A DNA stretch of 60,527 nt. Origin: Thraustochytrium aureum. Taxonomy: Eukaryota. Below are positions 35,252 through 41,645 of this stretch, piece by piece. The position numbers and the translations under genes are program-made. The notes under the pieces were generated by a model that did no database searches, was not told the DNA's origin, and saw only the letters and a program-made list of their open reading frames with translations. The stretch lies in contig BLSG01000142.1 of NCBI GenBank assembly GCA_012862495.1, forward strand, positions 100,051 to 160,577. The letters run 5' to 3'. Each line of letters begins with the position of its first letter. Position 1 is the stretch's first letter.

Positions 35252-37394
35252 ATGAGCGCGCCAGGGACGAACAAGGTGGACGTCGAGGTGCGCGGCGACG
35301 GGGTCGCCGTGGTCACCCTCGACCACTTTCCGCTCAACACGCTCTCGAACGCGGTGCAGCTCGGCATCGAAGACGCCGCCGTGCAGATCGAAGGCGACAA
35401 GCGCGTCAAGGCCGTCGTGGTGCGCGGGGCCGGGTCGAGGGCCTTTTGCGCCGGCGCGGACGTCGTCGACCTCAACAAGAAGCACGAGCGGTACCCGAAG
35501 AAGCCCTTCTTCCAGTACTTCGAGGCCCTCAACGTGCCGGTGGTGGCCGCGATCCAGGGGTTTGCGCTTGGCGGCGGCCTCGAGCTGGCCCTGAGCTGCC
35601 ACTACCGCGTCATCTCCAAGACCGGCGCCGTGGGCCTCCCCGAGGTCAACATCGGCCTGCTCCCGGGCGGCGGCGGCACCCAAGGCCTGCCGCGGCTCAC
35701 GGGCGCCAAGCTCGCCCTGGAGCTCATGCTCTCTGGCGCGCACGTGCCCGCTGTCAAGGCGCACCAAGCCGGCGTGGTTGACCTCGTCGTGGAGGACAAG
35801 GAGCTGATTGAGCGCGCTGTCGCCTTCGCGCTCGAGCGCGCCCAGTCCAACCCCTCCAACGAGGGCCGCCGCATCTCGACCATGCCGTGCCCGCCCCCGG
35901 AGGACGCAGGGCCCTGGTTCCGACAAGATGCGCAAGGCGATGGCGGCCAAGCGCCGCGGCCAGCCCGCGCCGCAGCGCATCATCGACTGCGTCGAGGCAG
36001 CCTGCAAGTCGGCCTACCCCGAGGGGCTCAAGACCGAGCAAAAGCTCTTCGGCACGCTTCTGGGCTCGCCCGAAGCCAACGCACTGCAGCACGCCTTCTT
36101 CTCCGAGCGCGGCGCCGCCAAGGTGCCCGGCCTGAAGGCCAAGCCGGCCAAGATCTCCAGCTTGGCCATGATCGGCTCGGGCCTCATGGCCGGCGGCATC
36201 GCCATGAACTTTGCCGAGCGCGGCATCAAGGTCATCATGCTCGACCGCGAGCAGGGCTACCTCGACAAGGGCATGGCCGTCATCAAGGCCAACTACGCCC
36301 GCAGCGTCCAGCGCGGGTCCAAGTCTCAGGCCGCCGTGGACAAGGCGCTGGCGCAGTTCTCCTGCACCACCTCCTACGACGAGATCAAAGACGTCGACCT
36401 CGTCATTGAGGCGGTCTTCGAAGACATGGACCTCAAGAAGGAGATCTTCGCCAAGCTCGACGCCACCTGCAAGGCGGGATGCATTCTGGCCACCAACACC
36501 AGCTTCCTCTCCATCGACGAGATGGCCGCTGTGACCAAGCGCCCCGAGGACGTCATCGGCATGCACTTTTTCTCGCCTGCCAACGTCATGCCCTTGCTCG
36601 AGGTCGTCCGCGGCGCCAAGAGCTCCCAGCGCACCATCGCCACCGCCATGGCCGTCGGCTCGCGCATTGGCAAGTGGTCTGTGCTCGTCGGCAACTGCCA
36701 CGGCTTCGTGGCAAACCGCATGATGGCCCAGTACGGCGTGGAGGCCCGCAACATGCTCATGGAGACCGACGCGTCCATCGAGCGCATCGACGCCGTTGCA
36801 ACCGACTACGGCATGCCGCTTGGCCCGTTCCAGCTCAGCGACCTTACCGGGCTGGCCATCGGAGTGGAGGCCCGCAAGAAGCGCGGCACCTTCGACCCGG
36901 AGAGAATTGTGCAGGACTGGCTCGTCGAGACCGGCCGTATGGGCATGAAGACCTCTGCTGGCTGGTACGACTACTCGAAAGACCGCAAGCGCTCCTCCAA
37001 CGCGCAGGTCAACCAGCGCATCCAGGAGACTCGCAAAGTCCTCGGCATGAAGCCTCGTTCGATCACGGACGAAGAGATCTTCCAGCGCCTCTTTTACCCA
37101 GTCATGAACGAGGGCTTCAAGATTCTCGAGGAGGGCTTTGCAACCCGCCCTGCCGACATCGATGTTGTGCTCATCCACGGCTACAACACGCCGCGCTACA
37201 AGGGCGGCATCATGTATGATGCCGATGTCATTGGCCTCCCGGTCATCCTCAAGGCGCTGCAGGGCTTCAGCAAGGCCTACCCCAAGGCCGACTACTTTGT
37301 GCCGTCCAAGCTCCTCGTCGACTGCGTCAACGCGAACGAGACACTTGCACGGTACTGGGTCAACCACGGCGCATCGATGCAAGCCAAGCTCTAA
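35252..37394 (+). CDS. EHHADH: Peroxisomal bifunctional enzyme: enoyl-CoA hydratase + 3-hydroxyacyl-CoA dehydrogenase (MFE-1 type); extra C at ~35921
   Basis: Crotonase motifs AFCAGAD, ALGGGLELALSC, GLPEVNIGLLPGGGGTQ. HAD motifs IGSGLMAGGIA, VIEAVFED, LATNTS, GMHFFSPA, GFVANR. C-terminal PTS1 -AKL. Confidence 0.92.
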
Positions 37395-37502: not shown

Positions 37503-38182
37503 CTTCTTCGTTCGTCGATGTCTTCGATGGATGGCCCTTGAGCTTGTTCTCCTTGACCGTGACATGACGCGATTCCTGTCCGCAGGCCAGCTCGGTGTAG
37601 AACGTAGAGTAGTCTACACTCATGATCGCAACGTCTGAAGAACACCGTGGCTGGCTGCAACACGGACCCAGAGCAGTATGGCCGACTGTGAGGCTCTCGA
37701 GTGGCGACATTCCGCCAATCTTTTCCGAGTCCTTTTCACTTGGACAACTACAAGGTCTACGCACGCCACGCATCATGCCTGCCTTGGCCCGGTAGAGCAA
37801 TTTGTAGAGTACTTAGAGAGTGGTGGGCTGGTCATCTCTGTCCCGCGCGCGGTGCGAGCCGTCCTCGGTACCGGTTGTGCCGCTTTCCGAGTCCGGGCGA
37901 AGATGCGTTGTTCTTGCCCGTTCGTATACTCAGGCTCGAGATCGCGCGTGTTGTGGAGTGCTGTGCAGAGCCCCAACGCGGTCGGGCAAGACAAAGCCAA
38001 TCAACGCAGCGGTGCAACGGAGGCAGAAAGAAAGCAAGCAAGAAAGAAAGAAAGGAAGGAAGAACTTGGAAAACGAAAGCAAGCAATCGCAGAGCTGCCT
38101 GGCGTTCCGGATTGGCACTGAGCTGGGTTGCGAACGACCGCGCGAGGCGCCTTTACGATTCGCTCAAGACTGCCACGGGACA

Positions 38183-41100
38183 ATGCGCGGGGACAAGGAG
38201 GTGAACGTCAAGGTGTCGGACCTGCTCGTTCGCGCGCTCGAGAATGAAGGCGTAGAGTACGTGTTCGGCATTCCCGGCGAGGAAAACCTCGACGTTACCG
38301 AATCGCTCCGCAAATCAAAGAAGATCAAGCTCATCTTGACGAGGCACGAGCAGGCGGCCGGTTTCATGGCCGCCACCGTTGGCCGGCTGACAGGCAACCT
38401 GAGCGTCGCACTCGCCACCCTCGGGCCTGGGGCAACCAACCTCACGACCGCAGCCGCGTTCGCGAATTTGGGCGGGTTCAGCTGCATGCTGATCACTGGG
38501 CAAAAGGGCATCAAAGACACTACGCAGGCTGCCTTTCAGATCGTCGACATCCCGGCGCTCATGCGCCCGCTCACAAAGTTCACGACGTCGGTGCCTCACG
38601 GCAACGTCCTGAGCGCCACCGTGCGCAAGGCTGCGCGGATCGCGACGACCGAGAAAAACGGGCCCGTCCACATCGAACTCCCGGAGGACGTGGCGAGCGA
38701 GATGACGCGCGAGGTCATCTTCGACCCCACGCCACTGCGGCGCCCCGTGGCCGACGAGAAGGGCATCGCCCGGGCCACCGAGGTCCTGCTGCAGGCCAAG
38801 CGGCCCATAATGATGATCGGCGCAGCCGCAAACCGACAGCGCGCGGTTCGCGCCCTCAACCAGTTCATCAAAGACCACCAGATCCCGGTGTTCTGCACGC
38901 AGATGGGCAAGGGCATCGTGAGCGAGGACAGTGAGCTGTTTATGGGCTGTGCGGCGCTCTCGTCCAAGGACCACGTCCACACCGCCATCGAGGCATCGGA
39001 CTGCATCATCAGCGTGGGCCACGACGAGACTGAAAAGCCGCCGTTCCTCATGACGTCACAAAAGCGGACGGTGCTCCACGTCGGGTTCTTGCCCTCTGTG
39101 GTCAGCAACTACTGGTATCCGACCTGCGAGGTCGTCGGCGACGTGGCCAACGCGATTTGGAACATCGGCGAGCGGCTCAAGGCCGAGCGCGGCCTCGGCT
39201 CGTATGCGTCGCCCATCTTCACCCGCATCAAGCAGCTCAGCGACGTGTGCATGAACGAAGGCTCGAACGACGACGCCTTTCCGGTCAACATCCTACGCGT
39301 CGTGAAGGACGTGCGGGCAGCGCTCCCCGCGGACGGCATTCTGTCGCTGGACAACGGGCTCTACAAAATCTTTTTCGCTCGCAACTTCCCGGCGCTCACC
39401 CCGAACAGCGTGCTTTTGGACAACGCGCTCGCCACGATGGGCGCCGGGCTGCCAAACGGACTCGCGGCGCGTATCGCGCTGCCGGAGAAGAAGACCGTCG
39501 TCATCACAGGCGACGGGGGCTACTTGATGAATTGTCCCGAGCTGCAAACCGCGGTCCAGTTCGGCCTAGACCTCGTCGTGCTCGTGCTGAAACGACAACG
39601 CGCTTGGCATGATCCAGTGGAAGCAAACCAACATGGGCTTCGACTCGTGGGGGCTGGACCTGAAAAACCCGGACTTTGTCATGCACGCAAGGTCCTTTGG
39701 CGCGCACGGGCATCGCATCGAGGCCGCGGCAGACCTGGAGCCGCTGCTCAAGCGCTGCATTGAGGAAGAAGGGGTGCACGTGATCGAGGTGCCGATTTCC
39801 TACGCCTGGGCAAAGCAGGTCCTCGGCAAGATCCCCATCCAGGCTGCGGAAATTGTGCGCCGTGTCAAGGAGGAGTTTCCCGACCTCGAGCTGGAGGACT
39901 CGATGCCCGGCGAGGCCCAAGAGGTGCAGAGCGACGACCCAGAGCGCGACTTGACGGCGTGCAAAGAGAGGTTGGACCATGCGCCTGAAGCGCCAGATAG
40001 CCGAAGGGCTGGCAAGGGCGACAATCTGCGTCACCACGAGAGCGACCCCGCGAGTGACGGGGCTAGCCACGGCTCGGACGCTGGCGAGTCCGGCTCGGCG
40101 CCTGAGAGCGGCGCTAAGGGCGAGGGCGGGCGCGGCGCAGCGCGCCATGGGTTTTCCATCAACAAGGGCGACAACGTGCCTTTCTACCTGGCGGGCGAGC
40201 CCACGGCGCCCAACAGCGAGCTTGAGGTGACCAACAAGTACACCCAGGAGGTTTTTTGCACGACCGCCCGGGCTGGGCCCGAGGACGTCGAGAAGGCGAT
40301 CGCTGCCGCGGCAGGGCCTGGCGCAGCGAAGATGCGAGCACTGCCGCCCTACAAGCGCAAGCAGATCCTGCTCAACGTGGTCGAGGGTGCCAAACGCCGC
40401 TTTGAAGAGTTTGCCTACATGCTTGCCATCGAGGCTGGCAAGCCGATCAAGGACGCTCGCGGCGAGGTCGGCCGGCTCATCGACACCTTTCAGATCGCGG
40501 CCGAAGAGGCGGTGCGCATCTACGGCGAATACCAAAACCTCGAGATCTCCGAGCGCGNNNNNNNNNNNNNNNNNNNNNNNNNNNNNNNNNNNNNNNNNNN
40601 NNNNNNNNNNNNNNNNNNNNNNNNNNNNNNNNNNNNNNNNNNNNNNNNNNNNNNNNNNNNNNNNNNNNNNNNNNNNNNNNNNNNNNNNNNNNNNNNNNNN
40701 NNNNNNNNNNNNNNNNNNNNNNNNNNNNNNNNNNNNNNNNNNNNNNNNNNNNNNNNNNNNNNNNNNNNNNNNNNNNNNNNNNNNNNNNNNAAGGAAGGGT
40801 TTTCAATCGTTCCTTGCTCGCGCGAGGCGGGTACGGCGTTGACAGAGGACGAGCGGTTCAAGCTTTTGACGTTTACGGGCTCCCCGACCGTCGGCTGGGA
40901 GCTCAAGAGCCGCGCCGGCAAGAAGGCGGTCGTGCTCGAGCTGGGCGGCAACGCTGCCTGCATTGTTGACGATCTCTCGCAGGGCTTGGACAAGACGGTC
41001 TCTGCGGTGGTTCATGGAGCCTTTTACCAGTCGGGCCAGAGCTGCATCAGCGTGCAGCGCCTTCTCGTTCACGACAGCATTTATGAGCGTTTCAAAAAAG

Positions 41101-41645
41101 CGCTCGTTTCTGCCACGGCGGATCTCAAGACGGGCGACCCGCTCAGCGAGGAGACATTTGTGGGCCCTCTCATCTCGGCGAACGACGCCGAGCGCGTCGT
41201 CGAATGGATTCGTGAGGCGACTGACGGTGGAGCCACGCTGTTGTGCGGAGGGGAAAAGCTGAGCGACGTGATCGTGTCCGCTGCAGTCGTCGAAAACGTC
41301 CCGCGCGACTGCAAGCTCAGCGCCGAGGAGGTTTTTGGCCCAGTGGTGTGTCTGCAGCGATACCAAGACTTCAAGGCGGCCGTCGACCTTGTCAACGACT
41401 CCAAGTTCGGCTTGCAGGCCGGCGTTTACACCAACAATTGGAACAAGGCCAACTACGCGTTCGACTGCATCGAGGCGGGCGGCGTCTGCATCAACACTGT
41501 CCCGTCGATCCGCATCGACTCGCAGGCATACGGGGGTATCAAAGACTCTGGGCTCGGCCGGGAGGGCATTCGCTATGCGCTTGAGGACATGACTGAGGTG
41601 AAAGTCATGGTAATGAAGGACGCCGGCCGCGCCGACCTGTTCTAG
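38183..41645 (+). CDS. Fusion: ThDP-dependent acetolactate-synthase-like/2-oxoacid decarboxylase + aldehyde dehydrogenase (family 21-like); extra A at ~39590; internal gap 40558-40790
   Basis: N-terminal: ALENEGVEYVFGIPGEENL, TRHEQAAGFMA, TLGPGATN, GDGGYLMN..VL(NDNALGMIQWKQ after removing one A). An uninterrupted ~110-aa acidic G/S linker leads in frame into ALDH: LEVTNKYT, IEAGKPIKDARGEV, TFTGS, LELGGNAA, FYQSGQSCISVQR, EEVFGP, YGGIKDSGLGREG. Confidence 0.85.

Follow-up and report, generated by a model that had tools for sequence, protein, structure and literature searches.

A Thraustochytrium aureum gene predicted to fuse a PRK08322-family decarboxylase with an ALDH21-type aldehyde dehydrogenase, and its relatives in algae, liverworts and ferns

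In a 60,527-nucleotide stretch of the Thraustochytrium aureum genome (GCA_012862495.1, contig BLSG01000142.1, positions 100,051 to 160,577 of the forward strand; hereafter, the window), we identified a gene in which a thiamine diphosphate (ThDP)-dependent enzyme of the PRK08322 family is followed by an aldehyde dehydrogenase (ALDH) of the ALDH21 type. With a probability of about two in three, we propose that this gene encodes a single bifunctional enzyme of ~1,145 residues, broken here by an assembly error, that would convert 2-oxoglutarate to succinate and yield NADPH. The ThDP half is predicted to decarboxylate 2-oxoglutarate to succinic semialdehyde, and the tethered ALDH21 half would then oxidize the semialdehyde to succinate in the cytosol, with the reduction of NADP+ to NADPH. 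To our knowledge, this shortcut from 2-oxoglutarate to succinate has so far been known mainly from cyanobacteria. The ThDP-ALDH21 fusion itself is very likely real, judging from its homologues.

The reading frame of the gene is broken at 39590-39592, inside the ThDP cofactor motif, where the original prediction, made from the sequence of the window, had placed one extra A. The first frame encodes the ThDP enzyme through residue 469, beyond which it runs out of register and stops at 39766, giving an uncorrected product of 527 amino acids (aa) without the equivalents of D462 and K471 of MaKGD, the Microcystis enzyme discussed below. The second frame is open from 39591 to 41645, with no stop as written, and spans the linker and the ALDH, again in agreement with the prediction. 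The Pfam profile TPP_enzyme_C is cut exactly at the extra base (profile positions 1-80 upstream, 81-151 downstream), the frame change is called at 39588/39589 by a codon model for which eight other parts of the window served as training data, and the site is read through in 31/31 ALDH21-type fused homologues, 30 of which have Asn-Asp there. The break is most likely a single-base assembly error, as far as sequence evidence can tell. The assembly is rough, given that five of the six direct frame switches that the codon model calls in coding segments of the window fall in other genes and that the window contains 13 N gaps. An intron was considered and rejected as the cause: many GT-AG pairs can be listed, each of which would remove conserved motif residues, and the homologues are colinear. 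Programmed frameshifting, needed by none of the 31 homologues, was deemed unlikely.

Both the catalytic Glu and the catalytic Cys of the ALDH were found, as expected. However, the domain had been described as complete, and it is not seen complete because 233 Ns at 40558-40790 cover ~70 of its residues. The landmarks flanking this gap are 79 codons apart in the window compared with 70 residues in four homologues. With the Ns counted, the protein is 1,153 aa long; homology suggests ~1,144 aa. Between the two enzymes lies an acidic linker rich in Gly, Ala and Ser and close in length to that of Hondaea; coding signal is weak over 180 nt of it (-9.5), yet the frame remains the best one there. Of four open reading frames of the window that were looked up as written, none has an exact match in the protein collection.

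The same architecture is encoded well beyond this protist, contrary to the original view of the fusion as a feature of the organism. We searched for long homologous proteins and assigned scores to the best 7,994 candidates, so that the absence of a lineage cannot be read from this search. Among 78 long homologues, 73 have the ThDP-then-ALDH order, 31 with an ALDH21-type domain and 42 with the EHGG-motif subtype. The 16 named ALDH21-type fusions come from Hondaea fermentalgiana, the MMETSP0958 transcript (81% identical to Hondaea; its given taxid points to a fungus, probably through mistyping of that for Aurantiochytrium limacinum), Riccia (two), Calypogeia, Ceratopteris, Psilotum, Pteridium, Spirogloea, JGI Mesen1 (presumably Mesotaenium), Bryopsis, Ostreobium, Coccomyxa (two), Elliptochloris and Rhodosorus; the remaining 15 were counted as eukaryotic from tree position alone. 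The open reading frames from MMETSP0958, Rhodosorus, Psilotum and Pteridium are transcript-derived, and partial fusion models were found in Marchantia and Adiantum. The red and green algal, liverwort and fern homologues rule out a protist-specific fusion, and the sequences compared indicate that it is old and widespread among eukaryotes. Separately, in Perkinsus olseni, a partial protein of 762 aa (P0086) carries an ALDH21 domain after a different N-terminal region, without a ThDP domain.

The ThDP half belongs to the PRK08322 family, as predicted, with residues 1-469 alone scoring 583.6 bits against the NF006187 model (cut-off 509). It is not a biosynthetic acetohydroxyacid synthase (AHAS), also in line with the prediction: the AHAS and AlsS cut-offs are missed both by the window piece (271.6/538 and 319.7/510) and by the full-length protein P0005 (339/538 and 374/510). 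The motifs RFDDR and MVRQWQ are hallmarks of AHAS; they are absent from the window and occur in 0/80 PRK08322 rows and in 2/2 AHAS controls encoded beside a ketol-acid reductoisomerase gene. The PRK08322 family comprises two sub-branches, one with the fingerprint of the decarboxylase KGD (DVGAHK) and the other, to which the window belongs, with DNGxYK. Both lysine motifs, containing the equivalents of MaKGD K386 and K471, are present in 80/80 PRK08322 rows and in 0/6 outgroup rows. The Microcystis enzyme is a strict 2-oxoglutarate decarboxylase that is inactivated by the E50A and D462A mutations (PMC10418658).

The MaKGD positions were mapped onto the window via seven proteobacterial proxies. 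We detected 12 KGD-fingerprint proteins in proteobacterial genomes, and 12/12 show the motif spacing of MaKGD (53 and 36 residues); proteins with this fingerprint pass the PRK08322 model. Among Pseudomonadota, 49 of the 151 sampled Pseudomonadota genomes have a PRK08322 match above the cut-off. No cyanobacterial KGD sequence was present among the best 80 GTDB loci or 60 of the 191 plasmid rows, and the candidates L084-L090 were identified as AHAS or as other enzymes. Nine of the 15 KGD positions are kept in the window, namely E50, K386, A408, M410, G434, D435, G436, D462 and K471. The main support for 2-oxoglutarate as the substrate is that both sub-branches converge on semialdehyde dehydrogenase partners: EHGG-type ALDHs accompany both, and the window branch is found also with ALDH21 and with succinic semialdehyde dehydrogenases (SSADHs) resembling PRK09406. 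Because EHGG-type ALDHs keep R121, Y296 and R457 (moss ALDH21 numbering), although often without R228, and also adjoin KGD-type genes, both ThDP branches appear to feed one kind of ALDH. The ThDP half would work like the cyanobacterial OgdA while lying outside the assayed branch.

The ALDH half was correctly predicted to be ALDH21. For the C-terminal piece, the best solved match is moss ALDH21 (5mz5, E 1e-94); for the N-terminal piece, 5mz5 ranks fourth, after three Burkholderia ALDH21-like chains; and in the tree, the window ALDH falls within the ALDH21-like clade (100/100). The Tyr and Arg residues singled out in the original prediction are in place in the moss ALDH21 alignment, the window keeping R121, R228, Y296 and R457 along with the catalytic Glu and Cys (the offset of 18 in the moss PDB numbering was inferred from alignments). 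Of 35 further fusion rows of the eukaryote type, 33 have the same set, and the remaining two have His in place of Tyr. R228 is said, in the 2017 work of Kopecna, to lie at the 2'-phosphate of NADP in moss ALDH21, and the ALDH half would likewise be expected to prefer NADP. In the moss enzyme, an SSADH with a Km of 181 uM, R121, Y296 and R457 hold the semialdehyde carboxylate (bioRxiv 10.64898/2026.01.13.699213), and the protein is cytosolic and NADP-dependent (bioRxiv 10.64898/2026.01.13.699213; PMC7823795).

The fusion protein ends in ADLF and, as predicted, has no type 1 peroxisomal targeting signal (PTS1). Its first Met lies 29 residues upstream of the xPGEE motif, compared with 21-22 in bacteria; across the homologues, mostly 16-50 residues precede this motif (66 in Ostreobium, 73 in P0003), so most N-termini seem too short for a presequence, and the protein is probably located in the cytosol. 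The AlphaFold model of P0005 (mean pLDDT 77.6, pTM 0.54) consists of two folded enzymes joined by helices, with linker residues 602-652 at pLDDT <50; linker conservation is 0.18 (A1 majority), with 43% gaps and a length that varies by ~80 residues. As modelled, the linker is probably a tether between the two enzymes and not a tunnel. The channelling envisaged in the original prediction found no support, the linker being variable and predicted to be disordered and the moss genes being split. Complex prediction with the two P0005 halves gave a score of 0.00 (mark 0.32), which weighs neither way on binding. Given that KGD and moss ALDH21 are both tetramers (PMC10418658; PMC7823795), the fusion may give rise to larger assemblies.

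Compared with known systems, the window enzyme shares with OgdA/KGD the catalytic Glu, the GDG/ND motif, Met410, both modelled lysines and a semialdehyde dehydrogenase partner, but is fused, eukaryotic, of the sister sub-branch (DNGxYK versus DVGAHK) and paired with ALDH21 instead of a PRK09406-type enzyme. The cyanobacterial SsaD is presumably of the latter type, and the Euglena gracilis decarboxylase we take to be of the OGDH-E1 type. The cyanobacterial OgdA/KGD plus SSADH bypass is represented by Synechococcus PCC 7002 A2770, Synechocystis Sll1981 and Microcystis MAE_06010 (PMC10418658). Euglena, like Thraustochytrium a eukaryote, runs the same two reactions with its 2-oxoglutarate decarboxylase and SSADH, but there these are separate enzymes in a modified mitochondrial Krebs cycle (PMC6856725, PMC10418658). 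Moss ALDH21A1 (PDB 5MZ5/5MZ8/5N5S) is similar in the residues listed above but is a stand-alone protein that has been read as a gamma-aminobutyric acid (GABA)-shunt enzyme, whereas the window ALDH21 is the C-terminal half of a fusion.

We found no description of the fusion or of the moss ThDP gene in the literature covered, which extended neither to Kopecna et al. 2017 nor to the preprint supplements. The available text of the moss ALDH preprint (bioRxiv 2026.01.13.699213) contains none of the words 'fusion', 'fused', 'thiamine' and 'acetolactate', and the fusion is unmentioned in the available parts of PMC7823795, PMC13387889 and PMC12041015 (12 of 26 places in the last). Both enzymes are of known kinds; their fusion in eukaryotes is apparently undescribed.

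An origin from a bacterial gene pair, as originally suggested, is supported by the bacterial neighbourhoods. We analysed the best 80 of 591 GTDB loci, among which there are no fusions; 44/80 have a same-strand ALDH gene downstream, in most cases no more than ~500 bases away and in three at a distance of 1.5-2.1 kb. These 44 ALDHs comprise 26 that are ALDH21-like, one broken ALDH21-like, 13 of the EHGG type and four others, three of which were tested and best match the NADP-SSADH PRK09406, below its cut-off. Among the 30 ALDH-less loci with at least 2 kb of downstream sequence, a scan of the nearest open reading frames found a glutamate dehydrogenase-family gene adjoining the PRK08322 gene in two. 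At three other ALDH-less loci (L004, L005 and L010; Latescibacterota and Gemmatimonadaceae), an Ldh_2 malate/L-lactate dehydrogenase-family gene lies directly upstream of the PRK08322 gene, which may point to another substrate in this subgroup. In a Heimdallarchaeota genome (L063), the ThDP gene is followed by a PRK09406-like SSADH.

Fusions do exist in bacteria. Proteins of 1,015-1,048 aa combining PRK08322 with an EHGG-type ALDH were identified in Ca. Obscuribacter and metagenome-assembled genomes (P0029, P0033, P0016 and 39 others), and the ESM Atlas holds a 58-member cluster of bacterial fusions. Ca. Obscuribacter are non-photosynthetic relatives of cyanobacteria. These proteins resemble the window enzyme in domain order and ThDP sub-branch but differ in the ALDH type and in their shorter linker. 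For the phylogenies, we relied on LG+G4 trees (ThDP, 47 rows chosen from 84; ALDH, 42 of 74), the quick trees being non-optimal, since a quick free tree was outscored by a constrained one. A single clade (95/95; 93 in the quick mixture-model version) unites the 23 eukaryotic ThDP halves, and within it the window groups with Hondaea and relatives (97/96); the ALDH tree recovers the same small group (98/94). The approximately unbiased (AU) test rejects a clade that joins the ALDH half of the bacterial fusions with that of the eukaryotic ones (p = 3e-24) but does not reject a single clade of their ThDP halves (p = 0.21 and 0.68), so that fusion either happened twice or happened once, with later replacement of the ALDH. 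An adjacent bacterial gene pair would have fused early, before or during the spread of the gene among red algae, green plants and stramenopiles. Neither tree resolves a bacterial donor lineage, and vertical descent is indistinguishable in them from transfer among eukaryotes.

In mosses, the two halves are separate genes. Stand-alone ThDP proteins (P0226, P0228 and P0229) are encoded in Physcomitrium (LOC112277820, 597-607 aa) and Sphagnum (580-582 aa), and, among the best 120 of 6,698 matches, they are 75-79% identical to the Riccia fusion query, compared with 64-69% for bacteria. Past the last core motif they have a tail of 44-51 or more residues that looks like the beginning of the linker in liverworts and ferns; for 91 of the 110 other stand-alone matches, the median tail is 22 residues. 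In the ThDP tree, the moss proteins are nested within the streptophyte fusions (100/100), and the AU test rejects trees in which the fusion clade leaves them out (p = 1e-4). These results suggest fission of the ThDP-ALDH21 gene in mosses (the moss ALDH21 sequence itself was outside the trees). As mosses carry both halves as separate genes, moss ALDH21 would have an unstudied partner, and we predict that the partner of ALDH21A1 is Physcomitrium LOC112277820.

Several observations weigh against a 2-oxoglutarate-to-succinate enzyme. The KGD substrate contacts were derived by docking to a predicted model, and the mutants described in the available text include neither K386 nor K471 (PMC10418658). 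Six of the 15 KGD positions differ in the window (Q254S, V382N, A384L, H385Y, Y465L and L467M), three of them modelled substrate contacts, and identity to the KGD-type proxies is 36-38%. The resemblance to OgdA noted originally holds for the common PRK08322 model and the two lysines; however, the window lies in the sister branch, and its grouping with the KGD-type proxies is rejected (AU p = 1e-5). In the literature, we found no enzyme assay for any member of the DNGxYK sub-branch. No ALDH is visible at 36/80 bacterial loci (30 with at least 2 kb downstream, 6 with less than 2 kb). On the ALDH side, ~70 residues are hidden by Ns, so that the cofactor-binding domain is only partly visible, an intron or stop may conceivably lie within the gap, eukaryotic monophyly of this half lacks support (46/50), and the bacterial ALDH21-like structure 5jry is titled NAD-dependent. 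Moreover, in moss aldh21 knockouts, GABA and glutamate are ~2-fold up and succinate ~20% down (bioRxiv 10.64898/2026.01.13.699213), a phenotype that the GABA route alone could explain, without a decarboxylase.

The differences in the pocket bear on the identity of the substrate. The same architecture and chemistry could serve another dicarboxylic 2-oxo acid, such as 2-oxoadipate, which would be converted to glutarate via glutarate semialdehyde, or a broad range of them, considering that the three differing modelled residues are nearly fixed in the DNGxYK sub-branch and that the Arg/Arg/Tyr set of the ALDH would select for a carboxylate-bearing aldehyde and not for chain length. We regard this as unlikely because moss ALDH21, the nearest solved relative, was measured to be an SSADH, PRK09406-like SSADHs are neighbours at some loci, and KGD-type genes, too, have the EHGG-type partner. 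That the ThDP half is instead a carboligase, acetolactate synthase-like or using 2-oxoglutarate as acceptor, with the ALDH half independently serving the GABA shunt, would fit the family name 'acetolactate synthase' in databases, the best solved relatives, which are catabolic acetolactate synthases or so labelled, and the GABA accumulation reported for the moss knockouts. Nevertheless, the scores below the AHAS and AlsS cut-offs and the missing AHAS motifs, together with the recurrent adjacency to and fusion with ALDHs, which suggest an aldehyde product, make a carboligase quite improbable. A genuine break, whether the gene has lately become a pseudogene or is split or recoded, would account for the extra A in the assembly, and the halves are separable, as in mosses; but the site lies inside the ThDP cofactor motif and not in the linker, D462, whose replacement inactivates KGD, would be lost, codon use is host-like on both sides (G+C at third codon positions 0.78-0.86 versus 0.75-0.91), all visible catalytic residues are kept, and the window abounds in similar switches and gaps, so that we consider a real break very improbable. 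The bifunctional route from 2-oxoglutarate to succinate remains our preferred reading of the gene, the features of which are listed in Table 1.

Table 1. Coordinates of the fusion gene and its parts in the window, and of two bacterial genes adjoining PRK08322 genes
Feature	Position	Strand	Basis or remark
Fusion gene	38183..41645	+	ATG 38183; TAG 41643-41645
ThDP enzyme, residues 1-469: PYR and central domains plus first half of PP domain	38183..39589	+	Pfam TPP_N, TPP_M, TPP_C profile 1-80; NF006187
Catalytic Glu of RHEQ (MaKGD E50 equivalent)	38348..38350	+	Sequence; alignment column
Lys of DNGLYK (MaKGD K386 equivalent, modelled 2-oxoglutarate contact)	39365..39367	+	Alignment
AAA carrying an extra base; +1 frame break within GDG...NDN motif	39590..39592	+	Frames, Pfam, codon model, homologues
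Remaining ThDP PP domain with D462 (39594) and K471 (39621) equivalents	39591..39815	+	Pfam TPP_C profile 81-151
Helix, then variable acidic G/A/S-rich linker	39816..40172	+	Open frame; linker lengths; conservation; pLDDT
ALDH21 N-terminal part, R121 equivalent at 40473-40475	40173..40556	+	PDB matches; residue columns
Assembly gap, 233 N, ~70 ALDH residues hidden	40558..40790	.	Sequence; homologue spacing
ALDH21 C-terminal part to stop TAG	40791..41645	+	Best PDB match 5mz5, E 1e-94; residue columns
ALDH21 key codons: R228 equivalent, catalytic Glu, Y296 equivalent	40821, 40938, 41025	+	Residue columns
ALDH21 key codons: catalytic Cys, R457 equivalent	41043, 41511	+	Residue columns
Glutamate dehydrogenase-family neighbours, Verrucomicrobiota	L038:2653-3990; L052:5927-7279		No adjacent ALDH

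A purine-rich GAAA/GCAA repeat at 38020-38075, ~110 bases 5' of the start codon, is probably part of the 5' untranslated region. Upstream, on the same strand (35252-37394, +), lies a gene for a peroxisomal-type multifunctional enzyme with enoyl-CoA hydratase and 3-hydroxyacyl-CoA dehydrogenase domains and the C-terminus AKL. It has a +1 break at ~35919, probably another assembly error, and the two frames of this gene correspond to residues 9-188 and 216-672 in a single PDB chain. Further frame switches (+) at ~2947, 7793, 8109 and 50716, which are errors or short introns, affect an unannotated gene (~2947), a DUF4455/DUF4456 gene (twice) and a Pex24p/PH/VASt gene. The window also carries eIF3L/Paf67, DENN, RGS and PRA1 genes, which mark its host as a eukaryote.

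In the thraustochytrid Aurantiochytrium T66, a gene annotated as 'SSDH-2' (T66005295.1) rises from 4.2 to 259, or 62-fold, under nitrogen starvation, and 26-fold by oxygen limitation, and the authors were unable to identify an induced main source of NADPH (PMC6923395). T66005295.1 may be this fusion or another gene. We tentatively suggest, as somewhat short of probable, that an old, overlooked one-protein cytosolic route from 2-oxoglutarate to succinate and NADPH is common to red and green algae, liverworts, ferns and thraustochytrid-like protists, that mosses have split it, with ALDH21 fed by the decarboxylase, and that in thraustochytrids it may be the strongly induced source of NADPH for lipid accumulation. 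Should the activity hold, many non-flowering plants, algae and marine protists would have an extramitochondrial way around 2-oxoglutarate dehydrogenase that yields NADPH, and the very large family of bacterial proteins now named 'acetolactate synthase' would acquire a function. ALDH21 would have to be re-read from a lone GABA-shunt enzyme to one half of a two-step pathway, and the drought-induced moss enzyme would obtain much of its substrate from a dedicated decarboxylase and not from GABA; moss ALDH21 is a stress-induced gene that has already been used to produce drought- and wilt-tolerant cotton. For thraustochytrids, the route would be a candidate for the unexplained supply of NADPH during oil accumulation.

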